NCBI GenBank assembly: GCA_046758505.1
Contig: JBHIAH010000006.1
Span: 1,544 to 65,543 of the forward strand
Origin: Candidatus Methylomirabilales bacterium
GTDB lineage: Bacteria; Methylomirabilota; Methylomirabilia; Methylomirabilales; CSP1-5
Reading direction: 5' to 3'
DNA length: 64,000 nucleotides
Of this stretch, positions 16,676 through 25,818 are shown piece by piece. Position numbers and translations under genes: made by a program. The notes under the pieces were generated by a model. The model made no database searches. It was not told the DNA's origin and worked only from the letters and a program-made list of their open reading frames with translations. The number at the start of each line of letters is the position of its first letter. Position 1 is the stretch's first letter.

Positions 16676-16692
16676 TCGCAACCCCGAAGGCT

Positions 16693-16710
16693 TCGCAACC
16701 TCTATGCCAC
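16693..16710 (-). promoter_or_regulatory. orphan sigma-54-type -24/-12 motif at the left edge of the island, pointing antisense into the preceding gene
   Basis: Minus strand reads gTGGCATagaggTTGCga, matching the TGGCAC-N5-TTGCA spacing exactly. No ORF lies downstream on that strand. A degenerate copy (cGGCACaatgaTTTAC) is at 16776-16793. Confidence 0.35.
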
Positions 16711-16741
16711 AGGGGTGCGGAGAGGGATGGCGGGGTGGCGC

Positions 16742-16772
16742 GGAATGTCAAGATTCAAGACCCGACCCTAAC
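16742..16772 (+). repeat. family C repeat, partial copy (C3)
   Basis: ggaatgtcaagattcaagacccgaccctaac. It shares the aatgtcaAGATnCnAG..GACCCTA core with 21257-21315, 23198-23261 and, inverted, 23623-23650. Confidence 0.6.
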
Positions 16773-16833
16773 CCCCGTAAATCATTGTGCCGGAGGTGGG
16801 GCTAGCCGCCATGCCTCCCCCGGATGCTTTCCG

Positions 16834-17610
16834 TCAGAGCAAGATCCCCAAGATACGAATGACTAACCGTTGGCCCCTGGACCGTTCGCCCCTGGAGTTT
16901 GTCGCGCGTATTTTTTCCTGCGTACAGATCTCACGCGCGTTTGTTGCTGCATCGCCGGTAATCGAGACGCCAAAGTCGATCCCCTTAAGGTCGTCGACGG
17001 TGAAGGGCCGCTCGGGGCGCACTTGCCTGCTGTTGTAATACACGACGTCTTTTTCGGTGTCCACGAACAGATACAGCCACTCGCCCGATGGGAGGTAGGC
17101 CTCTTGCCTCATCGCACCGAACCCCGTGCCGAGAAGTAAGAGGTAGCGCCCATCCGTGGACCACAGCAGGCATTCTGATTCCGGCGGTCCCTCGTCCGGC
17201 GAGCGAAAAACATCTTTGTAATGAGTCGTTTCCCCGCGGTCGTTCGTCGTGAGGCGGACGACGAAGTGACGCTCGGCAAACGCAGGCACCTCCTGGACCT
17301 CAGCCACCACCCGACCATCCGGGGAGGGAGCCGACAGACTCACGTATACCTGGGTCCACGACGCGAGAACAATCGGCAAAAACAGGCTCATCACACTCGC
17401 CAGTGCGGCCAACACGATCTTGAGATACATGCGCGATGTGAAGAAACACCCGAGCAAGACGGCGGCCAGGACAATGATGAATGAAATGAGGCCATTGCCT
17501 CCGAAGTAAGCATTGGCGAACAGGGCCACTATGAGTATTGTGAAAACCCCAAGTTTCAGCGCGACGCGCCCCGATCGCCGATCCCCCGGTGTCTGCTGTG
17601 CGAGTTCCAC
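16834..17610 (-). CDS. hypothetical membrane protein (3 N-terminal TM helices plus a soluble C-terminal domain)
   Basis: 258 aa, GTG start. Hydrophobic helices in residues ~20-95. The C-terminal part contains SPDGR.. and WSTDGRYLLL, reminiscent of single beta-propeller blades. No family recognised. Confidence 0.55.
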   Translation of the reverse strand: MELAQQTPGDRRSGRVALKLGVFTILIVALFANAYFGGNGLISFIIVLAAVLLGCFFTSRMYLKIVLAALASVMSLFLPIVLASWTQVYVSLSAPSPDGRVVAEVQEVPAFAERHFVVRLTTNDRGETTHYKDVFRSPDEGPPESECLLWSTDGRYLLLLGTGFGAMRQEAYLPSGEWLYLFVDTEKDVVYYNSRQVRPERPFTVDDLKGIDFGVSITGDAATNAREICTQEKIRATNSRGERSRGQRLVIRILGILL

Positions 17611-17630
17611 TCCGCAGGTCCCTTCTTTTT

Positions 17631-17677
17631 CTTAAAAAAGCAAAACGCCTTGACGGCTCTCCTTCACCGTAAAGGCG
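17631..17677 (-). terminator. intrinsic-terminator-like hairpin plus U-tract (part of junction module A1)
   Basis: Minus strand reads CGCCUUUACGG-UGAAGGAGAG-CCGUCAAGGCG (11 bp stem, one mismatch) followed by UUUUGCUUUUUU. Confidence 0.55.
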
Positions 17678-17695
17678 CTGCAATCATTGTGCCGG
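17678..17695 (-). promoter_or_regulatory. sigma-54-type -24/-12 promoter motif upstream of 16834-17610
   Basis: Minus strand reads cCGGCACaatgaTTGCAg, with GG-N10-GC spacing identical to the TGGCAC-N5-TTGCA consensus. It lies about 70 nt upstream of the GTG start. Confidence 0.55.
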
Positions 17696-17734
17696 GGGTG
17701 GGCGAAGAGATCGGCGGGCCTTAAATTCAACTCC

Positions 17735-18433
17735 CTACAAGTGCAAATCGCAGTTTTGACAATGATTGAACGGCCTGGGAATCCACTCGAATAATACGTT
17801 ATCCAACTTCCACGGGTCGAGCATGTTGAAGTACTCCCCGCAGCGAGGACATTTGACGGAGCCCGTGAGACCCCCCAAAATCCCCAAGAGGCCGACATAG
17901 CAGAAGGCAAATACCTTACTCGTGGACGTGGACACTTGAGAGACCAGGATGACGGCGGGAAGAAACAAGAAAAATAACACCAGTGTTCCGATGTTCCGCC
18001 GCCGGATCCGCTGCAATACCCGCATCTCCTCGGCATTGGGTGGCTTGGTTTCGTGGATAAAGAACGCATCGGTCTCCCGCCCTTTGTATACCATGGGAAT
18101 TCTTACGGTTAAGAGGTCCTCGAACACACTCTGAAATTGTTCGTAAGACCAGCTGAGGTTTCTCTCCCTGGCCAATTGAGCATAGAGTTTTTCTCTCGGC
18201 ACGGTCAGGTCTTTGATATCCAGCAGATCGTTCGAGGCGATGTATGACGCGATCTCGAGACACTGGGGATCCGGAAGCCTGGTATCCGTGGCTTGCCAGC
18301 GGATATCTTGCGGCTCGTCGTCGTCAGGCCAACTGACATGCACCTCAACGACATCAAAGGTTTCTTTTGTAATTCTTACGGTCGGGCTATCGAACATCGC
18401 CAGAAACCCGCGCAAGAATTCTACTCGACGCAT
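17735..18433 (-). CDS. hypothetical protein: soluble N-domain, 2 TM helices, C-terminal zinc-ribbon (CPRC..CQNC)
   Basis: The track ORF begins at a TTG (18469). ATG 18433 (MRRVEFLRGF) is preferred. TM segments IGTLVLFFLFLPAVILV and FAFCYVGLLGILGGL, followed by CPRCGEYF..HCQNC. Confidence 0.5.
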   Translation of the reverse strand: MRRVEFLRGFLAMFDSPTVRITKETFDVVEVHVSWPDDDEPQDIRWQATDTRLPDPQCLEIASYIASNDLLDIKDLTVPREKLYAQLARERNLSWSYEQFQSVFEDLLTVRIPMVYKGRETDAFFIHETKPPNAEEMRVLQRIRRRNIGTLVLFFLFLPAVILVSQVSTSTSKVFAFCYVGLLGILGGLTGSVKCPRCGEYFNMLDPWKLDNVLFEWIPRPFNHCQNCDLHL

Positions 18434-18477
18434 AGATATAACTTCCCCACGTATCACAGAGCGAATCAAGCGAGCCT

Positions 18478-18519
18478 GAAAAGTAAAACGCCCTCACGGC
18501 CTCCTTCGCCGCAAAGGCG
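18478..18519 (-). terminator. intrinsic-terminator-like hairpin plus U-rich tract (junction module A2)
   Basis: Minus strand reads CGCCUUUGCGG-CGAAGGAGG-CCGUGAGGGCG, where every position pairs if G-U is allowed, followed by UUUUACUUUUC. It is homologous to 17631-17677. Confidence 0.5.
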
Positions 18520-18537
18520 CTGCAACCCTTATGCCAC
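18520..18537 (-). promoter_or_regulatory. sigma-54-type -24/-12 promoter motif upstream of 17735-18433
   Basis: Minus strand reads gTGGCATaagggTTGCAg, with exact consensus spacing. Confidence 0.55.
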
Positions 18538-18598
18538 GACTAGAGCACATCACAGGCCTGGCCCCGCCCCTCTTTGCCCAAGACGCGACCCATCGAAC

Positions 18599-18656
18599 AT
18601 CGGCGTTCGCCGGCACGCCTGAAGTGCGGCGCGCTCAATTGCCCTGCCCCCGAGCC
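18599..18656 (+). repeat. family F repeat, copy F1
   Basis: atcggcgttcgccggcacgcctgaagtgcggcgcgctcaattgccctgcccccgagcc. 54 of 58 positions are identical to 22089-22146 by hand alignment. It contains the dyad GCAC-N7-GTGC (18613-18627). Confidence 0.75.
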
Positions 18657-18692
18657 CCACTCGCAATCTAGGCATTAACCATAGACGCCCAC

Positions 18693-19169
18693 TTATCGGT
18701 GGCAGTATTTACAGATGAGTTCTTCGTACTGTTTAATAATTTCTCCGTCGATCGCAATAACTCGGTCTTCTACCAAGGGGTAAAGTTCACCAGTCTGAGC
18801 AAACCGTTCAACTGTCGAGATAGAGAAGTGAGGCTCGTACGGCCTTACGATAATTAAGCGTGCTTCGGGCCAATACTTTGCTGCCCTGGTGCCCCACTCT
18901 TTGAGAGATTCGGCCAATCCGTTTCCTGATCGAAACTTGACCTCGACGAAAGAGACATCCCCATTTTTCATCACAATAAAATCAGGCATCGTGCGGATCT
19001 TCTCGGCCTCGATATCCCCCTTGTTCATCCGGGGGAGGCCTCGTTGCACGAGGCTCTGGAGAATCCCCTCGTAGCCGAAGCGGTAGACAAAGTAACCGCC
19101 ATCCTGGAGCATCTCGCTCACGATCGTCTCGGCCATTCGTCCCCGGAGGAGGCTTTCGGGAAACTTCAC
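18693..19169 (-). CDS. PD-(D/E)xK nuclease-fold protein (restriction-endonuclease-like), function unknown
   Basis: PDFIVMKNGDVSFVEVKFR is a D..(E)VK motif in the expected beta-strand context. The first ~17 codons of the track ORF (to 19256) are the sigma-54-like repeat itself. GTG 19169 follows GAGGA; ATG 19136 is an alternative start. Confidence 0.5.
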   Translation of the reverse strand: MKFPESLLRGRMAETIVSEMLQDGGYFVYRFGYEGILQSLVQRGLPRMNKGDIEAEKIRTMPDFIVMKNGDVSFVEVKFRSGNGLAESLKEWGTRAAKYWPEARLIIVRPYEPHFSISTVERFAQTGELYPLVEDRVIAIDGEIIKQYEELICKYCHR

Positions 19170-19231
19170 GGTCGAATCCTCATTTAAGTGCCCACAAAGG
19201 GCATACCATCCTTCCGTCAGGGGAGAAAGGA

Positions 19232-19249
19232 CTGCAACTCTTATGCCGT
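19232..19249 (-). promoter_or_regulatory. sigma-54-type -24/-12 promoter motif upstream of the PD-(D/E)xK gene
   Basis: Minus strand reads aCGGCATaagagTTGCAg, with exact spacing. It lies about 65 nt upstream of GTG 19169. Confidence 0.55.
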
Positions 19250-19566
19250 AGGGCACCTGGGAGCCATCTGGCGCGCACCGTCCTCAGGGCGGGCGGCTCG
19301 GGCTACCAGAATAAAGGCCGTAACCTATTGATATGAGGGTGATCAGCCGCAGGGCAGGCTTTTAGGAGGGTTGGCTGAAAGTCTGCGGGTGAAAGCAGTA
19401 TGCCCGTCCACCACAAAGCCGTATCCGCGCCGTCCTTTGCCAAAATGGCCCTTGAATCCTCGGCGTGCGGTCGATGGTGCGGGAAGGGGTAAAGGGGGAT
19501 CCTGGGGTGGCGCGCAATATCAGGATGCGCGGCCTGACCCTACAACCAGTCATGTTCGTGGCAATG

Positions 19567-20679
19567 TCAGCCAGAACTTGCTTCCACCATGCAAACTGCC
19601 TGGCGAAGCCTCTTGATTGCTTCCTCGCGGCCAACAGCAACGGACTGCACGGTGGGCGCGTCGAACAGGAGGCGTGCGTAATCTGCGTTTATAGCCCAGC
19701 TTACGTCCGGTGGCGCTCCCTTCGGGATGGACCGGAAACCCTGCAAAGCGGCAGCTGAATCTATGATGCCAACAACTTCTCCTAGTTCATTTACAATTGG
19801 ACCGCCAGAGTAATCTGCCTGAATTGGGACTGAAATTTGTAGGACGGACGCCTCACCTTTAGGTCCAGAAAGTGCGCTGATGACCCCCTCCAATGATCTT
19901 GCTTCTTCACCGAGGTGGTCCGTACCAGGATAACTCACCGTGAAAACACGCTCACCCAGGCGGGCAGATCCTGTCGACACTAAAGGGAGGAACTGTGGCG
20001 TGCGAGGACCAATTTGCAGAACCGCAAGATCGTTCCCGGCGTTATACGTTTGGACCTTGGCGTTTGTGACTGTTCCGTCAGCCAAGTGAACTTGTATGGA
20101 CTTCGCGCCCTGGACAACGTGGTAGGTCGTTAGCAGGATCCCATTCCCACGCACCGCAAAGCAAGTCCCACGAATGTTTTGATCTCTTTTATCTTTTGGC
20201 TCCACCTTTGGAATCTCAGGAGTAGCCTGTGCGCTTGCAACTGATTCCTCCTCTACATCTTCCTCTGCGTCTTTTGGTGGTGCGGGAACCGGCGCCTGAT
20301 TGATGGCAAGGATGCGATCGTCGGGACCATAGATGATGGTGATCCGGTGCTTATCGGCTTGGGAAGCCTCGATGGGTGTGCCAGCGACCTCCCAAATACC
20401 CAGGGTCAGAACATCCAACACAGCGTGCCCGGCAGCACGTCCCGCACTTGGCTCGTTGCCTAGCTCATACTCGTAGATGTCGGTTCGCCCACCATCCGGG
20501 GTCGTCACGGAGGAGACGGGACTGCCCAGTTGCAACTCCGCCTCCCCGCGGGTTGAGCCCACGCGTAACGCGCCCAAATTTGGTTCCCTTTTACCACTCA
20601 TCGCCATACCGACAGAACATGCTGTTAGCGATGAAAGGAGGAACACACCTGCCAACAAAGCAGTTAGCTGCTTTATCAT
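19567..20679 (-). CDS. lipoprotein with C-terminal trypsin-like (S1/HtrA-type, no PDZ) serine protease domain
   Basis: Start taken at MIKQLTALLAGVFLLSSLTAC (lipobox LTAC), not the upstream track start 20796. Catalytic triad context: TTYHVV, NDLAVLQI, DYSGGPIV. Confidence 0.75.
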   Translation of the reverse strand: MIKQLTALLAGVFLLSSLTACSVGMAMSGKREPNLGALRVGSTRGEAELQLGSPVSSVTTPDGGRTDIYEYELGNEPSAGRAAGHAVLDVLTLGIWEVAGTPIEASQADKHRITIIYGPDDRILAINQAPVPAPPKDAEEDVEEESVASAQATPEIPKVEPKDKRDQNIRGTCFAVRGNGILLTTYHVVQGAKSIQVHLADGTVTNAKVQTYNAGNDLAVLQIGPRTPQFLPLVSTGSARLGERVFTVSYPGTDHLGEEARSLEGVISALSGPKGEASVLQISVPIQADYSGGPIVNELGEVVGIIDSAAALQGFRSIPKGAPPDVSWAINADYARLLFDAPTVQSVAVGREEAIKRLRQAVCMVEASSG

Positions 20680-20805
20680 AATCAAACCCCCTCGTGGTTT
20701 CCCTTTCAACTTCAGAAATCTATGCGACCTCACTTTGCCATCAGATCCTGTAAAACAGGACACAAAAAATGCATTCTGCTGGACTGTGCCAAGCAATAAA
20801 GGCTA

Positions 20806-20823
20806 GTGCAATGATCGTGCCGA
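20806..20823 (-). promoter_or_regulatory. sigma-54-type -24/-12 promoter motif upstream of the protease gene
   Basis: Minus strand reads tCGGCACgatcaTTGCAc, the best match to TGGCAC-N5-TTGCA in the window. It lies about 130 nt upstream of ATG 20679. The flanking sequence is unrelated to the other copies. Confidence 0.6.
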
Positions 20824-21256
20824 AGATAGCTGGAAGCTATCACGGCCCTTACTTCAGCAACACTGCCATGGGACTCGGCTAAAACCGGAAAGCTGCCTCT
20901 TTCGGATAGGGATCATGTTCGAGGTAAAACTTCGGGAAGCTGGGTGTGAAACGGTGTGCATAAGATCATAAGATAAAAAAGGAGAGGGCTGCACCGAGAG
21001 CCGGGACGCCTGTCGAGCCGGAGCGTGCCGGAAAATAAGTTTGGCTGTGTGGTGGGCGGTCGAGTGGGCCCGAAGGGGGCGAGGGACTATGCCTGCCCCT
21101 TCTTCTTTCTGGGGGATTTCAGTTGGCCCCGGGGGACCGGTGTGCCGGGGGCTCGGGGCAACCGCACCCTCCAGATCTTCTTACGTGGCTTCTGGAGCTT
21201 TCCCACGAGAGCGATACGCCCCTCTCCGCCGGCCCGAGGAGGCTGCGCCAACCGCG

Positions 21257-21315
21257 CATCAGACCCGCGGCCGCTCGCCGCATTCCAAGTGCAATGTCAG
21301 GATTCAGGACCCTAC
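21257..21315 (+). repeat. family C repeat, copy C1 (just downstream of brnA)
   Basis: catcagacccgcggccgctcgccgcattccaagtgcaatgtcaggattcaggaccctac. About 42 of the first 50 positions match 23198-23261. Confidence 0.7.
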
Positions 21316-21332
21316 ACTAGAGCTACGGCCGG

Positions 21333-21560
21333 TCACGCCACAGTCTTCCAGTTCATCTCCAGGCGCTTCCCAGTGGCCGCGCAATCCCGAAGGTATAGGT
21401 TAATGAGCGTCTGATACGGGATCCCACACTCCTCCGAGATCGACTTGAAGTACTTGATCGTCTGCTCGTCGAGTCGGATGGTGACCTGCCGCTTGAGGCG
21501 GCTCGCGTAGGGGTTCCGCCGTGCCTTCGAAAAGTCGTATTCTTTCTTCATGTGTGCCAC
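21333..21560 (-). CDS. brnA: BrnA-type antitoxin (ribbon-helix-helix)
   Basis: 75 aa. KKEYDFSKARRNPYA..VTIRLDEQTIKYFK is characteristic of BrnA. It overlaps brnT by 13 nt. Confidence 0.8.
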   Translation of the reverse strand: MAHMKKEYDFSKARRNPYASRLKRQVTIRLDEQTIKYFKSISEECGIPYQTLINLYLRDCAATGKRLEMNWKTVA

Positions 21561-21844
21561 CTTTGATTGTAGATGTCCCGTTCCCTGCGGGTCGCCTTGC
21601 GTGCGGAGATGATCTGGATCACCCCCTGGTCCTCCCGGTAGGCATGAGCCACCACAAGGATGCGCAGCTTCGCACTGAGCCCAAGAAGGATGAACCGGTC
21701 TTCCGCGGTTGCGTGCTCGGGGTCGTCGATCAATAACGCGTGCTCGTCCGCGAAGACCGTCTCTGCCTCGGCAAACGGTACTCGGTGCTTCCGCCTGTTC
21801 TGCGAGTCCTTCTTGGGATCCCAGGCGAACCGCAGATCAGACAT
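21548..21844 (-). CDS. brnT: BrnT-type toxin (DUF497 ribonuclease)
   Basis: 98 aa. FAWDPKKDSQNRRKHRVPFAEAETVF..RFILLG..RILVVAH..IISARKATRRE is the canonical BrnT pattern. Confidence 0.85.
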   Translation of the reverse strand: MSDLRFAWDPKKDSQNRRKHRVPFAEAETVFADEHALLIDDPEHATAEDRFILLGLSAKLRILVVAHAYREDQGVIQIISARKATRRERDIYNQRWHT

Positions 21845-21850
21845 ACTTAC

Positions 21851-21879
21851 ATCATAACTACGAAGTAGGGTCTTGTCAA
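21851..21879 (-). promoter_or_regulatory. sigma-70 promoter of brnTA giving a leaderless mRNA
   Basis: Minus strand reads TTGACA (21879-21874), a 17 nt spacer, TATGAT (21856-21851), then 6 nt and ATG (21844). The -35 box is embedded in a short inverted family C core (gtagggtcttgtcaag, 21865-21880). Confidence 0.65.
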
Positions 21880-22088
21880 GATATCTCTCGTGTGCGCCTA
21901 ACGCTAACGCCGAGCCGCCGCTGTTGAGCGAGCGGTCTGAACCAACCCTGCCCCTTCCCGCACTACGGCCATCTGAAGCGTCCGCAGAATATCAAAATAT
22001 CAACGTCAGACCCTCATGCGAGCATACGCCCGATAGTTTCGGAATTCCGAAAACGTGGGGGAAATGGGAAATGGCCAGCCTCGACTCT

Positions 22089-22146
22089 ATCGGCGTTCGC
22101 CGGCACCCCTGAAGTGCGGCGTACTGAATTGCCCTGCCCCCGAGCC
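22089..22146 (+). repeat. family F repeat, copy F2
   Basis: atcggcgttcgccggcacccctgaagtgcggcgtactgaattgccctgcccccgagcc, 54/58 identical to F1. The adjoining cctgaccccgcccctc block (22184-22205) also occurs next to F1 (18556-18580), but on the other side. Confidence 0.75.
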
Positions 22147-22245
22147 TCGACCAATCCAATTACAAATAGCAAACCGCCGGCCTGACCCCGCCCCTCCACT
22201 GCAACACGATCCTCAGTATGCTCGACGGGAAGAGGGGTGGCCATC

Positions 22246-22296
22246 ACCCGGTCCGCAGCGGCTGATGAAGAGAGCCGATGCAATTGACAATTGTAG
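22246..22296 (+). repeat. family E repeat, copy E1, abutting the truncated HEPN gene
   Basis: cagcggctgatgaagagagccgatgcaattgacaattgtagactcgacccc, 45/51 identical to 23128-23178. It contains the CAATTG-A-CAATTG double palindrome and a CGGCT..AGCCG hairpin. Confidence 0.75.
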
Positions 22297-22306
22297 ACTC
22301 GACCCC

Positions 22307-22519
22307 TTATTCGCCCTCATGGGTTCTCGGGAACGGGACGGCTAGCAGGGTTAATAGCCCCTTGAGATATTTTTCGGCGCACTGCTGGGCGTGAAAACAC
22401 ACCGTGCCTAGGGGGCATCTCGCGCGGAGGGTTAATGTATGCTCGGCAGTGGTGAGATCTTCCTCAGCCTTCTCGACCCATTGGCGAACCACCCGAAGCG
22501 TCTCAGGCGACACGCTCAT
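22307..22519 (-). pseudogene. HEPN-domain toxin, 3'-truncated (about half length)
   Basis: 70 aa. WVEKAEEDLTTAEHTL..FHAQQCAEKYLKGLL..FPRTH then EGE-stop. HEPN partners of MNT are usually about 120-140 aa and continue after the (R)xxxxH motif. The reading frame ends 8-10 nt from repeat E1. Confidence 0.65.
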
Positions 22520-22835
22520 ACAACACCTCGCCCTCGCGCAGGGCAGGATAGATGATCGTCCCGACAGTATCGCGGTATCGCTCGACCTCCTCAGGGGTGA
22601 CCACGATCACGTCCTTCGGGAACCCGACGCCCGCGAGGGCGAGATCGATCTCGACGGCGGTCTGGCGCTTAGAGCCGGAAACGCGCATCACTACCAGCAG
22701 GTCGGCGTCGCTGTCCGGCCCACCCGTCCCGCGAGCCTGCGACCCGAACAGGATGATCTTTTCCGGATCGAAGCGGTCCACGATCCGTCGCACCATCTCC
22801 CCGATGATCTGCTGTCTCCAGTCTCCGTCGTCCAC
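22503..22835 (-). CDS. MNT-type nucleotidyltransferase antitoxin (pairs with HEPN)
   Basis: 110 aa, GTG start. ILFGSQARGTGGPDSDADLLVV is the GS-x10-DxD pol-beta NTase motif. It overlaps the HEPN ORF by 17 nt. Confidence 0.85.
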   Translation of the reverse strand: MDDGDWRQQIIGEMVRRIVDRFDPEKIILFGSQARGTGGPDSDADLLVVMRVSGSKRQTAVEIDLALAGVGFPKDVIVVTPEEVERYRDTVGTIIYPALREGEVLYERVA

Positions 22836-23127
22836 GGCCTTTTCCGATCACAGCCTTCGCTAACTGCTACGGCTGCCAGGGCCAGCCAGCCCTTTCTCTC
22901 GCTCACGGTAGCATGATACACAACACCGCTAGACTTGACGAGCCCTTCCTGCCAGAGACCGGGAGACGTGCCAGGCGAGGACTGCACGGGGTAGCGTGTC
23001 GGCAGGGCGCACGTGCGGGGCCCGCCCCAGGTACATGGAGTCGAGCTGGAGGGCGACGACGGGCATGGCGTCCCACCGGCCCGGCCGGCTGGCGGCAGCC
23101 AGTGCGAGGGACATTCAGCCAACACCC

Positions 23128-23178
23128 GAGCGGCTGATGAAGAAAGCCGAAGCAATTGACAATTGTAGACCTCACCCC
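23128..23178 (+). repeat. family E repeat, copy E2
   Basis: gagcggctgatgaagaaagccgaagcaattgacaattgtagacctcacccc. Confidence 0.75.
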
Positions 23179-23197
23179 ATCCCTCAAATTTCTACAG

Positions 23198-23261
23198 CAT
23201 CAGGCCCGCTGCCGCTCGCCGCATTCCGATGGCAATGTCAAGATCCTAGGCCCGACCCTAC
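23198..23261 (+). repeat. family C repeat, copy C2
   Basis: catcaggcccgctgccgctcgccgcattccgatggcaatgtcaagatcctaggcccgaccctac. Confidence 0.7.
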
Positions 23262-23285
23262 GACCTTATACTCCGATCCGTGACA

Positions 23286-23618
23286 CTATTCAGGTGCGAA
23301 AAAATCCTCATCGATGCCGAGAAGTGATAAACGACGCCTTGAAACACCTATGTTATTCTCAATCATTAGCTCGACAATACGCTGTCCGTCGATAAGCATA
23401 ATGGGGACTGCCCCACGTTTGAATCCCACCTGTTTTGCCTCCGCGGTAAAGGACGACGTCGTAATGAATATTCCTTGGTCGAAGTCCCCAGTAATTGCAC
23501 CCCGAAACTTATCGATTTCTGGGCGAGAAATCGTCGTTTGTTGCCACCGCTTGCTTTGGAAAGCCGCATTAATGTTCAAAATGCCTTGCCGGAGCTTACC
23601 ATGACCGTCGATCCGACT
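23286..23618 (-). pseudogene. Mrr-type restriction endonuclease, C-terminal catalytic-domain fragment only
   Basis: The open frame from 23618 reads SRIDGHGKLRQGILNINAAFQSKRWQQTTISRPEIDKFRGAI..GIFITTSSFTAEA..IMLIDGQRIVELMIENNIGV. This matches the Mrr_cat pattern (IDG.., QxKRW, FITTS.F, LIDG..L..LM). A TGA lies immediately upstream at 23619-23621, inside the family C4 repeat. The N-terminal winged-helix half is missing. Confidence 0.7.
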
Positions 23619-23622
23619 TCAT

Positions 23623-23650
23623 GTAGGGTCAGGTCTTGAATCTTGAATTT
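23623..23650 (-). repeat. family C repeat core, inverted copy C4
   Basis: Plus strand gtagggtcaggtcttgaatcttgaattt is the reverse complement of aaattcaagattcaagacctgaccctac. It forms an inverted pair with C2 around the Mrr fragment. Confidence 0.65.
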
Positions 23651-23853
23651 TCCCCATCCCCGCGTTCACCCGACCAGGACCCAAGTATCTTGACGCCCGA
23701 TTCTCGCCCCCCCAAAACACAAAGCACCGGGGAGCCTGTGGGGCCCGCCCGGCGCTTTGCCCTTGTCAAAATCTCCCCTGCCTACATCCTCATCCATCCG
23801 GCCCGTCCCTGGATAGTTGAGGGTCGAGAGCGGAGCGTTGAGTGTCAATTACC

Positions 23854-24084
23854 TCACAAGACTTCAAATTCCTCTGGACTCAACGCTGCCTGTCGCAGAA
23901 TGCTCCGCGGGGTGCCAACGGCTACCTCGCGATGCCGCGGCACGATGGCGGTGCGGATACCCACGGCCATCTGCTTGACAAACTTGACATGGCTGCCCTT
24001 CTGCCCTACTTCCGCAAAGCCCGCTGCTTCCAACCTACGCTTCACTTCACGGTAAGGCAGCGGGCTAAGCGGCACTGACTTCAA
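23854..24084 (-). CDS. hicA: HicA-family mRNA interferase toxin
   Basis: 76 aa. REVKRRLEAAGF..QKGSHVKF..IVPRH.EV..GT..SILRQA is the YcfA/HicA pattern. Confidence 0.85.
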   Translation of the reverse strand: MKSVPLSPLPYREVKRRLEAAGFAEVGQKGSHVKFVKQMAVGIRTAIVPRHREVAVGTPRSILRQAALSPEEFEVL

Positions 24085-24271
24085 TCTCGACCCGCCGCAT
24101 TTGCGGGGTCAGCGTCGCACGCGGTTCCTCGAAGTGCAATTCCAATGCCTCACGGAGGTTCGCCAACGCCTGGTCTTCGGTCTCCCCTTGGCTGGCGATA
24201 TCGATCTCCAGGCACTGCGCCACAAACCAGTCGCGTTCGCGTAATATGCTTGCGGTAAACGTCTGCTTCAT
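24065..24271 (-). CDS. hicB: HicB-like antitoxin (UPF0150 fold, no DNA-binding extension)
   Basis: 68 aa. FTASILRERDWFVAQCLEIDIASQGETEDQALANLREALELHFE. It overlaps hicA by 20 nt. Confidence 0.75.
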   Translation of the reverse strand: MKQTFTASILRERDWFVAQCLEIDIASQGETEDQALANLREALELHFEEPRATLTPQMRRVEIEVSAA

Positions 24272-24507
24272 TCTCGGCTTTCCTGCCTATCGGCTGCGGC
24301 GGTGAGAGGCCACGGAGTGAGTGTGGAGCGCGACACCATTCGTCGGCAATCCAGCCCGTCCCCGTATCCCCCTAAACCATGATGCGCGAATAGGCTATCA
24401 AGGCGAGGGGTCAAGTCTGCCCTTGACTCATCTCCGTTCCAATGCCTTCAAGTCAGACCTGCTCATCAAGCGGCTTTCGTCCGAGGAAGTAGCTCCTTGG
24501 GTATGTA

Positions 24508-24741
24508 TCATAGCTCCTCTAATATTCGGTGATAGTCTTCGATGCTTCGGCCCATGTCTCGGAGGATCTTACGAAGCAGCGGCCGCACAATAACCTGCGA
24601 GCCGTGATCGGGGATGACCACGATCCGTCCTTCGGCATTGCGGAACACGTTGTGGCTGCCCTCCCGCCGGACCCAATGAAAGCCTACTGCCTCAGCCATC
24701 TTACTCAATTGTCGATAGGCGACGAGGCGTAGCTTTGTCAC
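24508..24741 (-). CDS. hicA: HicA-family toxin (second copy)
   Basis: 77 aa. YRQLSKMAEAVGFHWVRREGSHNVFRN..GRIVVIPDHGSQ. Confidence 0.85.
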   Translation of the reverse strand: MTKLRLVAYRQLSKMAEAVGFHWVRREGSHNVFRNAEGRIVVIPDHGSQVIVRPLLRKILRDMGRSIEDYHRILEEL

Positions 24742-24956
24742 GCTGGGACCTCGACCCTCCAGGTCCCCACGAAGTCAGGTAGGGGCTCATCAGGTGAGGT
24801 TGTTTTCAGGTAGGCCTGAATTGCTTCGCGAATATTTTCTTCGAGCGCTGGCAGATCAGGGGCCTGGGTGTAACACCCTGGTAGCTCCACCACTTCCCCC
24901 ACCAGCCACTGGCTTTCGGGGTCCCGTTCCACCACTATCGTAAACGACCGTTTCAT
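24738..24956 (-). CDS. hicB: HicB-like antitoxin (second copy)
   Basis: 72 aa. FTIVVERDPESQWLVGEVVELPGCYTQAPDLPALEENIREAIQAYL. 4 nt overlap with hicA. Confidence 0.8.
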   Translation of the reverse strand: MKRSFTIVVERDPESQWLVGEVVELPGCYTQAPDLPALEENIREAIQAYLKTTSPDEPLPDFVGTWRVEVPA

Positions 24957-24987
24957 CCTAAGCTCCCTGCGCGAGCGATCCAGGCCA

Positions 24988-25015
24988 ATTATACGTGCTT
25001 AGTGTTGATCGGCAA
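24988..25015 (-). promoter_or_regulatory. sigma-70 promoter of the second hicBA pair
   Basis: Minus strand reads TTGCCG (25015-25010), a 16 nt spacer, then a perfect TATAAT (24993-24988). RBS AGGGAG lies 6 nt before ATG 24956. Confidence 0.6.
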
Positions 25016-25138
25016 AACCCAAAAGCGCCGGGGAATCGCCCTTCCTTACGCCACCTAAACCACGATGCCCGCTACTCTATTCCCTCGGATGCCCCCATGT
25101 CAATAGAGAGTGGCGGGGGAACGGCTGACCGCTGACAG

Positions 25139-25336
25139 CTATTCGGTGTCTTCCTCGATATGCTCGTAAATCACCGTCCCACAAGTGGGGCACCGGTCGG
25201 TGAAGCAGATCAGGACCTCGGGATCGTACTTCGCATGCGCAGAATAGTACCCCCGTGTCACCTCCGTGCGTTCCACCTCGGTTCCGCCGCATGTCGGACA
25301 CCGGGTTAAGTCACGCTCGGGCCTCTGCTCCATCAT
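25139..25336 (-). CDS. small zinc-ribbon protein (two CPTCG knuckles)
   Basis: 65 aa with CPTCGG..x35..CPTCG. The start overlaps the stop of the upstream ORF by 4 nt. Confidence 0.5.
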   Translation of the reverse strand: MMEQRPERDLTRCPTCGGTEVERTEVTRGYYSAHAKYDPEVLICFTDRCPTCGTVIYEHIEEDTE

Positions 25337-25818
25337 GCCTCCCCGTCCACCTCAGCGCTGCCCCCCCTGACCGTCTCCACCCACGCCCGCGGCAGCTGCG
25401 ATTTGAGCCCGGCCGCCCCGTAGAGCGCACAGCCCAGCATTTTCCCCTCGTAGCGGACCGCCACGTACCCTCCCTCCACCAGAAAGGGACCAGCGAGAAT
25501 CTCACCGCGGAGGAAAGGGTTAAGTTGCTCTGCGGTCAGGTCGACCACATTCTTGGCGATGGCGTCTCCGAGGAAAAGCAGGGCGGCCGTCGTGGGCTTC
25601 CAGAGGCTCCTCCGTTTCCGAAGAAACGGCAAGCCGGCCGCCTCGACCTTCAGCAAGGCAAGGGCTTCCTCGACCCCCATCAGGTCTGCCATCGCCCAGA
25701 CGTTCTTCCCCCGCACCAGAAACCGGAGCCCCTTCAGGGCGGAAAAGGGGACACCGAACCGCCCGTGCCAAAATTCGAGAATTGCCTGCTGGTCACTCGG
25801 GCTTACGGAGACAAGCAA
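25333..25818 (-). CDS. RsmF-type C-terminal (PUA-like) domain encoded as a separate ORF
   Basis: 161 aa, TTG start. GYVAVRYEGKMLGCALYGAAGLKSQLPRAW resembles the C-terminal tail of E. coli RsmF/YebU (V..F.....GLAK..GSRLKNSYPR). It overlaps the methyltransferase ORF by 26 nt in another frame. Confidence 0.55.
   Translation of the reverse strand: MLVSVSPSDQQAILEFWHGRFGVPFSALKGLRFLVRGKNVWAMADLMGVEEALALLKVEAAGLPFLRKRRSLWKPTTAALLFLGDAIAKNVVDLTAEQLNPFLRGEILAGPFLVEGGYVAVRYEGKMLGCALYGAAGLKSQLPRAWVETVRGGSAEVDGEA

Follow-up and report, generated by a model that had tools for sequence, protein, structure and literature searches.

Sigma-54-type promoter motifs, some joined to a predicted terminator, ahead of four genes in a low-GC island of a Methylomirabilales bacterium

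The island and the four motif-preceded genes

We analyzed a stretch of 64,000 nt from contig JBHIAH010000006.1 (assembly GCA_046758505.1) of a Candidatus Methylomirabilales bacterium. The whole stretch is called the window here, and all coordinates without a locus name refer to it. The window contains an island of about 8.6 kb (16690..25340) in which all genes lie on the minus strand and the GC content is 0.53-0.61, compared with 0.63-0.71 in the flanks. Two hicBA pairs, a C-terminal Mrr fragment, an MNT gene with a truncated HEPN gene, brnTA and four genes that each follow a sigma-54-type promoter motif make up the island. These motifs, and the hairpin to which some of them are joined, are the subject of this report. 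A preliminary description of the window had regarded the island as horizontally acquired, and its reduced GC content, toxin-antitoxin pairs and gene fragments agree with this.

The four motif-preceded genes are numbered here by increasing coordinate, and all are on the minus strand. Gene 1 (16834..17610) has a GTG start and encodes a predicted membrane protein of 258 amino acids, to which the proteins P0174 and P0175 are 100% and 78% identical. Gene 2 (17735..18433), whose start matches the Logan gene call, encodes a protein of 232 amino acids that contains transmembrane segments and, at its C-terminus, a CxxC...CxxC zinc ribbon. Gene 3 (18693..19169) encodes a probable PD-(D/E)xK-fold protein of 158 amino acids in which D63, E76 and K78 are invariant. 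Up to 10 of 28 members of the gene 3 family give sub-threshold matches to UPF0102, VRR_NUC, TnsA-like and NERD, and the assignment to the PD-(D/E)xK proteins is plausible at the level of these comparisons. Gene 4 (19567..20679) encodes a lipoprotein-type trypsin-like (S1) serine protease of 370 amino acids. For genes 1, 3 and 4, NCBI has identical proteins recorded under a Candidatus Methylomirabilales bacterium. The genes had been described as orphans, a label that does not hold: seven homologues were found for gene 1, 68 for gene 3 (some of them from candidate-phyla-radiation bacteria) and more than 100 for gene 4. No PADLOC or NCBIfam model matched genes 1 to 3, and gene 4 was matched only at the level of the trypsin or protease domain.

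Sigma-54-type motifs

On the minus strand, the four 16-nt motifs read CGGCACAATGATTGCA (17694-17679), TGGCATAAGGGTTGCA (18536-18521), CGGCATAAGAGTTGCA (19248-19233) and CGGCACGATCATTGCA (20822-20807). Promoter 1 (17679..17694, minus), CGGCAC-AATGA-TTGCA, stands before gene 1 and has its GG at 17693-17692 and its GC at 17681-17680; with the GC set at -13/-12, as for all four copies, transcription is predicted to start (+1) near 17668. Promoter 2 (18521..18536, minus), TGGCAT-AAGGG-TTGCA, precedes gene 2 with a predicted start near 18510, and promoter 3 (19233..19248, minus), CGGCAT-AAGAG-TTGCA, precedes gene 3 with a predicted start near 19222. For promoter 4 (20807..20822, minus), CGGCAC-GATCA-TTGCA, which precedes gene 4, the predicted start lies near 20796. 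The GG of the -24 box and the GC of the -12 box are precisely 10 nt apart in all four copies, and 68, 87, 63 and 127 nt separate TTGCA from the start codon in copies 1 to 4. Thus the motifs, their exact RpoN spacing and their distance of roughly 55-130 nt from the next gene are as first described, apart from outer coordinates that had been set 1 nt too wide at each end. The predicted 5' untranslated regions measure 58, 77, 53 and 117 nt, and the start codons (17610, 18433, 19169 and 20679) match independent gene calls and NCBI protein lengths.

The motif is strongly enriched in the window. GGCAY-N5-TTGCA has 5 exact matches in the 64 kb, where 0.30 are expected, and none of 100 dinucleotide shuffles contained 5 or more. 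When GG and GC were made obligatory and up to 2 mismatches to TGGCAC-N5-TTGCA were allowed, copies 1, 2 and 4 were the only sites with at most 1 mismatch, copy 3 having 2, and no further site with at most 1 mismatch was found in the other ~55 kb of the window. The four best sites of the window are confined to a single stretch of 3.2 kb, and each of them is intergenic and co-oriented with the next gene. The fifth exact match, GGCATTGGAATTGCA (24149-24135, minus), is absent from the preliminary description. It lies inside the coding sequence of the second hicB, 51 nt before hicA, and could be an internal sigma-54 site or a chance occurrence.

Two further copies at the island edge, already described as relics, are indeed present. 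The first, TGGCATAGAGGTTGCG (16694..16709, minus), has TTGCG as its -12 box, is followed by no gene and faces the 3' end of a convergent dehydrogenase gene. The second, GGCACAATGATTTAC (16777..16791, minus), has TTTAC in place of the -12 box and fails the 10-nt GG/GC test, its GC having been lost; its upstream flank and spacer match those of promoter 1 (family D4). The degraded -12 boxes and the missing downstream genes fit relaxed selection.

The toxin-antitoxin genes nearby carry sigma-70 boxes, as had been pointed out. Those of brnT (TTGACA-17-TATGAT) agree with the consensus at 11 of 12 positions and those of the first hicB at 10 of 12, and a sigma-70 consensus scan found no comparable boxes in the four promoter-bearing intergenic regions. 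The brnT boxes (21851-21879, minus) end 7 nt before the ATG at 21844, which implies a leaderless or nearly leaderless mRNA.

A terminator on the same DNA

At copies 1 and 2, and in most of their relatives, a hairpin followed by a T-run starts 1 nt after the TTGC of the -12 box, a feature that the preliminary description did not contain. For these two copies the hairpin consensus is AGCGCCTTTrCGG...CCGTsArGGCGT, followed by TTTTrCTTTT. Terminator 1 (17634..17679, minus) has the stem AGCGCCTTTACGG/CCGTCAAGGCGT and then TTTTGCTTTTTT, with its T-run at 17634-17645 and a folding energy of -21.4 kcal/mol (z -3.5). Terminator 2 (18477..18521, minus) has a 14-bp stem and then TTTTACTTTT, with its T-run at 18477-18486 and a folding energy of -24 kcal/mol (z -3.2). 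A hairpin also follows directly after promoter 3 (19204..19236, minus; -20 kcal/mol, z -2.15), with no T-run and a weak match to model R1. Copy 4 has no fused hairpin (z +0.98).

The hairpin covaries. In a cassette alignment of 16 distinct copies, itself fitted to the covariance model, 94% of the cells of 14 base pairs were paired and 7 of the 14 pairs had changed on both sides, a result equalled in none of 500 shuffles. With an independent MAFFT alignment, the number of pairs altered in both arms was 4. Numerous G-U pairs indicate that the hairpin is specific to the minus-strand transcript. From these features we predict that the hairpin of copies 1 and 2 is a genuine intrinsic terminator. 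Like known intrinsic terminators it has a GC-rich stem of 13-14 bp, a short loop, a T-run, a position downstream of a gene, and covarying and G-U pairs. It differs from them in that its 5' arm overlaps the melting region of the predicted promoter, so that one piece of DNA would end one transcript and begin the next. The 5' arm spans about -11 to +3 relative to the predicted sigma-54 start. RNA beginning at the predicted +1 of copies 1 and 2 has no significant fold (z +0.8 and +1.2), and read-through RNA forms the full hairpin.

Copies 1 and 2 have about 50 nt of downstream hairpin in common, and the upstream flank and spacer of copy 1 recur in a relic; these copies are therefore not independent. 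The earlier argument that the motif is not a mere passenger of one repeat stands for copy 4 alone, since copies 1 and 2, like the relics, are members of a single promoter-terminator module that is repeated across the lineage.

Conservation of the boxes in related genomes

Orthologues of gene 1 and gene 3 were retrieved from other metagenomes by protein identity only, with no requirement for the motif. The gene 1 orthologue (locus L036, 78% identity) has GGCATAAGGGTTGCA at the equivalent position, with the same terminator and leader but another spacer, another upstream flank and a different upstream gene. The gene 3 orthologues (L017-L021, 76-82% identity) have ccccctccGGCACGACTGTTGCA 81 nt before their GTG, where the window has ctacGGCATAAGAGTTGCA at 78 nt; the boxes of these loci read GGCACGACTGTTGCA, and their spacer and upstream flank differ from those of the window. 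For gene 2, two orthologues of 81% identity carry GGCACAATGATTGCA (L010) and GGCATAGCGGTTGCA (L012), the window having GGCATAAGGGTTGCA. The upstream flanks of the three gene 2 loci are unrelated, and the alignable sequence begins at the -24 box.

A metagenome scan that demanded only TTGCA and both hairpin arms returned 8 loci, in 7 of which GGCAC or GGCAT stood at the exact spacing. Across 15 copies GGCA and TTGC are invariant and position -21 has either C or T, and each spacer position has an information content of 0.3-0.8 bit. About one third of these copies were chosen by motif, so that as tests we count only those retrieved by protein or by hairpin.

Two canonical GGCAT-N5-TTGCA sites lie outside the repeated module at locus L013, at 5290 (plus strand) and 4481 (minus strand), and point in opposite directions. 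One faces a response-regulator ORF and the other a Ser/Thr-kinase ORF, 62 nt before it. To judge from such sites, the lineage appears to use sigma-54-type promoters outside the module too.

A reusable cassette

Homologous cassettes, each consisting of the boxes and the hairpin, stand before members of the gene 1 and gene 2 families and also, in L008, L010 and L013, before at least five unrelated ORFs. The box-plus-spacer part occurs in two versions, ctccGGCACAATGATTGCA and tGGCATAAGGGTTGCA (ctccGGCAC-AATGA and tGGCAT-AAGGG), and these have been exchanged between orthologues. In the window, gene 1 has the first version and gene 2 the second; the gene 1 orthologue of L036 has the second, and the gene 2 orthologue of L010 the first. 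Additional copies were recovered with a covariance model of the cassette. In a set of genome representatives that excludes the source genome, a scan that combined the motif with the beginning of the hairpin gave two true relatives, both from one metagenome-assembled genome (MAG), and two chance matches in coding DNA. As far as these alignments can tell, the cassette is a reusable regulatory module of this lineage that is placed before unrelated genes.

Promoter reuse in prokaryotes has been described by Nijveen, Matus-Garcia and van Passel (PMC3575422). The cassette resembles the reused or "mobile" promoters of that study in that a near-identical promoter stands before non-homologous genes, within and across related genomes; it is unlike them in that the unit is a sigma-54-type promoter fused to a terminator. 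Neither target duplications nor terminal inverted repeats were seen. Scans of viral collections with the type B core (see below) and the TAGGGTC element gave chance matches within genes only, and no link to phages can therefore be drawn. Rfam had no match in the window, in the island (E up to 5) or in eight related loci (E up to 1).

A sister form of the cassette

A related arrangement, which we call type B to distinguish it from the cassette described above (type A), was found in L013, L004, L010, L018, L022, L023 and L028. It consists of a left block, then GGCAY with AATCG after it, then either ACGGC or GTGGC in the place of TTGCA, then about 16 extra nt and finally the hairpin. In type B the GC is 11 nt from the GG, compared with 10 in a canonical sigma-54 site, and a block of about 45 nt is conserved upstream of GGCAY. 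The window contains no type B copy and, at up to 3 mismatches, no left block.

The left block, GGAACCGGGGTAGGCATAGC..TAGCCC.CCTCC, occurs in about 20 copies directly upstream of GGCAY in both forms of the cassette (for example L012:2189-2208), at loci L004, L008, L010, L012, L013, L018, L020, L022, L023 and L028. Inspection by eye revealed no RNA pairing that was consistent across copies, and a candidate helix, CCGGGG/CCTCCGG, was likewise unsupported across them. In L010:1800-1863 (minus) the left block plus GGCACAATCGACAGCGCACC reaches an ATG 26 nt after the GG with no hairpin; if GGCAC were the -24 box there, the mRNA would be leaderless.

Before orthologues of the S1 protease gene, type B lies within a conserved, non-coding leader of about 215 nt (L022:1105-1322, L023:646-860 and L028:1609-1826). 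This leader extends from a sigma-70-like TTGACA-N18/19-TATAAAT to a strong terminator, which is followed after about 10-20 nt by the ribosome-binding site and ATG; in layout it is similar to a riboswitch or attenuator. Rfam has no match for it, and its consensus fold shows no covariation among the three sequences, which are too similar to one another. Three other readings of these elements were rejected: a tRNA-like reading of ...GGCGCACCA, whose arms are unpaired; an RfaH ops-like reading of GGGGTAG, where the resemblance is only partial; and a sigma-70 reading of the TTGACA in the TAGGGTC element, for which no -10 box was seen by eye at a usable spacing.

Promoters or something else

We think it probable that the four motifs are sigma-54 (RpoN)-dependent promoters, a reading that is well supported for copies 1 to 3 and plausible for copy 4. 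Like the sigma-54 promoters glnAp2, nifH and Pu (TGGCAC-N5-TTGCW), they have GG and GC 10 nt apart, agree with the consensus at 9-10 of 11 positions and have C or T at -21; they also stand before genes, in a lineage with a listed sigma-54. Unlike the known promoters, they have mostly C rather than T before the GG, most copies have a terminator hairpin starting at -11, and the genes downstream are island genes, not nitrogen, flagellar or stress genes. Supplementary file 8 of PMC12316311 lists DAMO_1190, from the related species Ca. Methylomirabilis oxygeniifera, as a sigma-54 in which the domains for activator interaction, core binding and DNA binding are all present. A literature search on Methylomirabilis sigma-54 and on natural promoter-embedded terminators returned nothing beyond this supplementary table.

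Several observations count against sigma-54 dependence or narrow its basis. For the source MAG, a sigma-54 factor is expected by extension from a related species, and the RpoN box is absent from the six-frame translations of the 64-kb window. A k-mer and dyad search found no upstream sequence or dyad shared by the four promoters. Promoters 3 and 4 do not have the canonical fused terminator, and the pair counts of the larger cassette alignment depend on a fit to the covariance model that they describe. Promoter 4 has no close orthologue and hence no support from conservation; the gene 4 orthologues, at only 55-61% identity, do not have the motif and instead have the sigma-70-like promoter and the leader with type B. 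More distant homologues of genes 1 and 3 also have no motif. The existence of type B bears on the question as well: GGCAY and the block upstream of it can be conserved without a -12 box, so that the conservation of type A may in part be inheritance, and part of the conservation of GGCAY may reflect descent of a repeat or another function rather than sigma-54 binding. Finally, one region of L013 has a type A cassette and then, still ahead of the gene, a type B terminator, an arrangement that a simple model of escape from termination does not account for.

Some of these points lead to an alternative that we consider unlikely, namely that the motif is a conserved piece of a lineage-specific intergenic repeat (a 3'-untranslated-region or terminator module, or the remnant of a small mobile element or leader RNA), that it does not function as a promoter, and that transcription of the genes comes from elsewhere or by read-through. 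Copies 1 and 2 and the relics do belong to a repeat family, type B retains GGCAY and the left block with no -12 box, the GGCAC of L022, L023 and L028 is transcribed as part of the ~215-nt leader downstream of a sigma-70-like promoter, and a second repeat family (TAGGGTC..TTGACATT) also marks intergenic regions of the island. However, descent of a repeat does not explain why TTGC(A) is kept at the exact 10-nt spacing in every type A copy despite a variable spacer, why sites occur before genes outside the module (window copy 4 and the two L013 sites), why the alignment of orthologues starts exactly at the -24 box, or why no other promoter is detectable. Nor does it sit well with the absence of type B and the left block from the window, with the lack of an Rfam match, or with a left block whose pairing appears inconsistent. 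A still less likely alternative is that the sites bind sigma-54 holoenzyme in a stable but unproductive closed complex, which would serve as a roadblock or placeholder in the way suggested for many sigma-54 sites within genes of E. coli. The holoenzyme binds DNA in the absence of an activator (reviewed in PMC7057263), and non-promoter binding of sigma-54 is reported to be widespread (PMC4591121); in addition, no activator site was found and one site lies within hicB. The steady position of the sites 50-120 nt before gene starts, the lack of other promoters and the way in which the sites accompany the downstream gene all argue instead for productive promoters.

The organization of the island invites a comparison with integrons. 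Like integron arrays, it has co-oriented, small and unrelated genes, toxin-antitoxin pairs, gene fragments and intergenic repeats; unlike them, its hairpin is a plain terminator followed by a T-run and the window has no integrase. A cluster of integron cassettes with attC sites was provisionally rejected on these grounds, no RYYYAAC/GTTRRRY core pair having been seen by eye.

A further question is whether one activator controls all four putative promoters, which would then make up a common stress or defence regulon, as had been suggested at the outset. Four adjacent sigma-54-type promoters in an island rich in toxin-antitoxin genes, with a restriction-enzyme fragment close by, make the idea attractive; gene 3 is nuclease-like, and the protease domain of gene 4 weakly matches PADLOC protease domains. 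Other results speak against it. The promoters have no common upstream site, genes 1 to 3 have no match to a defence model and gene 4 has one at the domain level only, and the four genes are found separately in other genomes: in the related loci they never occur together and their contexts differ, so that a conserved four-gene cluster was also rejected. No activator is encoded nearby. The earlier statement that the window encodes none is borne out by six-frame translations, which have no GAFTGA signature, and the translations of all related loci likewise have no GAFTGA or RpoN signature. We therefore view a common regulon as improbable.

A proposed mechanism

If the four motifs are sigma-54 promoters, each would head its own unit of promoter, short leader and gene in a mosaic island. 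At copies 1 and 2, and at most related copies in other genomes, transcripts entering from the upstream gene would carry both arms of the hairpin and terminate at the T-run. Sigma-54 RNA polymerase would begin its transcript within the 5' arm, about 12 nt past the GC; this transcript would form no terminator and would extend into the gene. Such an arrangement would act as an insulated switch that stays off until an enhancer-binding ATPase, encoded outside the window, fires the promoter. We place moderate confidence in this mechanism. Sigma-54 promoters are silent without their activator, and such promoters would therefore suit genes that are harmful when leaky, such as those for a nuclease, a protease or membrane proteins.

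Two known systems offer partial parallels. Velazquez, Fernandez and de Lorenzo reportedly observed in 2006 that the sigma-54 promoter Pu is shielded from upstream read-through by its upstream activating region. As at Pu, a silent sigma-54 promoter would be guarded from upstream transcription; unlike at Pu, the guard would be a terminator built in downstream of the -12 box. In Neisseria, the Correia elements are small intergenic repeats that carry promoters and terminators. The cassette resembles them as a short, lineage-specific intergenic repeat that would supply regulatory signals to its neighbours, and differs in having no visible terminal inverted repeats or TA duplication and in having a promoter of the sigma-54 type.

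A broader and more speculative possibility is that the Methylomirabilales and their relatives hold a portable "plug" of about 75 nt, not described before, in which a sigma-54 promoter and a terminator share DNA, and which is swapped between genes and wires acquired genes one at a time. Type B would then be a related leader or attenuator, and the two together would form a new family of mobile cis-regulatory elements; we put this forward only tentatively and think it may well prove wrong. The components, that is sigma-54 promoters, intrinsic terminators and reused promoters, are known; what is of interest is that the three are fused and that a sister module exists. Were this picture true, the cassette would explain how incoming genes are tamed one by one, would provide an initial picture of how the poorly studied NC10/Methylomirabilota lineage uses sigma-54, and would offer synthetic biology the design of a promoter with zero read-through. 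Should the module turn out to be a repeat or an RNA element, types A and B would still represent an uncatalogued conserved non-coding element.

Other features of the island

Two genes of the island are truncated. A 70-amino-acid N-terminal HEPN fragment (22307-22519, minus) follows its MNT partner, and a 97-amino-acid C-terminal fragment of an Mrr/type IV restriction protein (23286-23579, minus) matches type IV restriction models in PADLOC. Both are signs of decay of the island.

Several repeats occur between the genes. The repeat TAGGGTCRGGYCTTGAATCTTGACATT is present on the minus strand at 16721-16770, 19493-19542, 21256-21319 and 23197-23260 and on the plus strand at 23624-23650. Its copies lie 14-64 nt past stop codons of island genes, the element also occurs in L004, L017 and L013, and it may be the end of a mobile element. 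Owing to the single inverted copy, the Mrr fragment is flanked by inverted repeats. A direct repeat of 58 nt (93% identical) is found upstream of promoter 2 (18599-18656) and upstream of brnT (22089-22146); a 29-nt repeat adjoins it at both places (18544-18572 and 22168-22196), in reversed order. An imperfect direct repeat of 27 nt (78% identical) is present at both island edges (16776-16802 and 25165-25191), and the right copy falls within a small zinc-ribbon ORF (25139-25333, minus), at its 3' end. This repeat may be the scar of an old integration or a chance similarity. The island has no integrase gene, and a scan for tRNA and tmRNA genes as an integration site found none.

Between brnA and promoter 4 lies a small ORF (21087-21251, minus) that encodes a very basic product (...KLQKPRKKIWRVRLPRAPG...). 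A homologue is found at L036:1-111, immediately upstream of the gene 1 orthologue, and the ORF is probably a real small gene.

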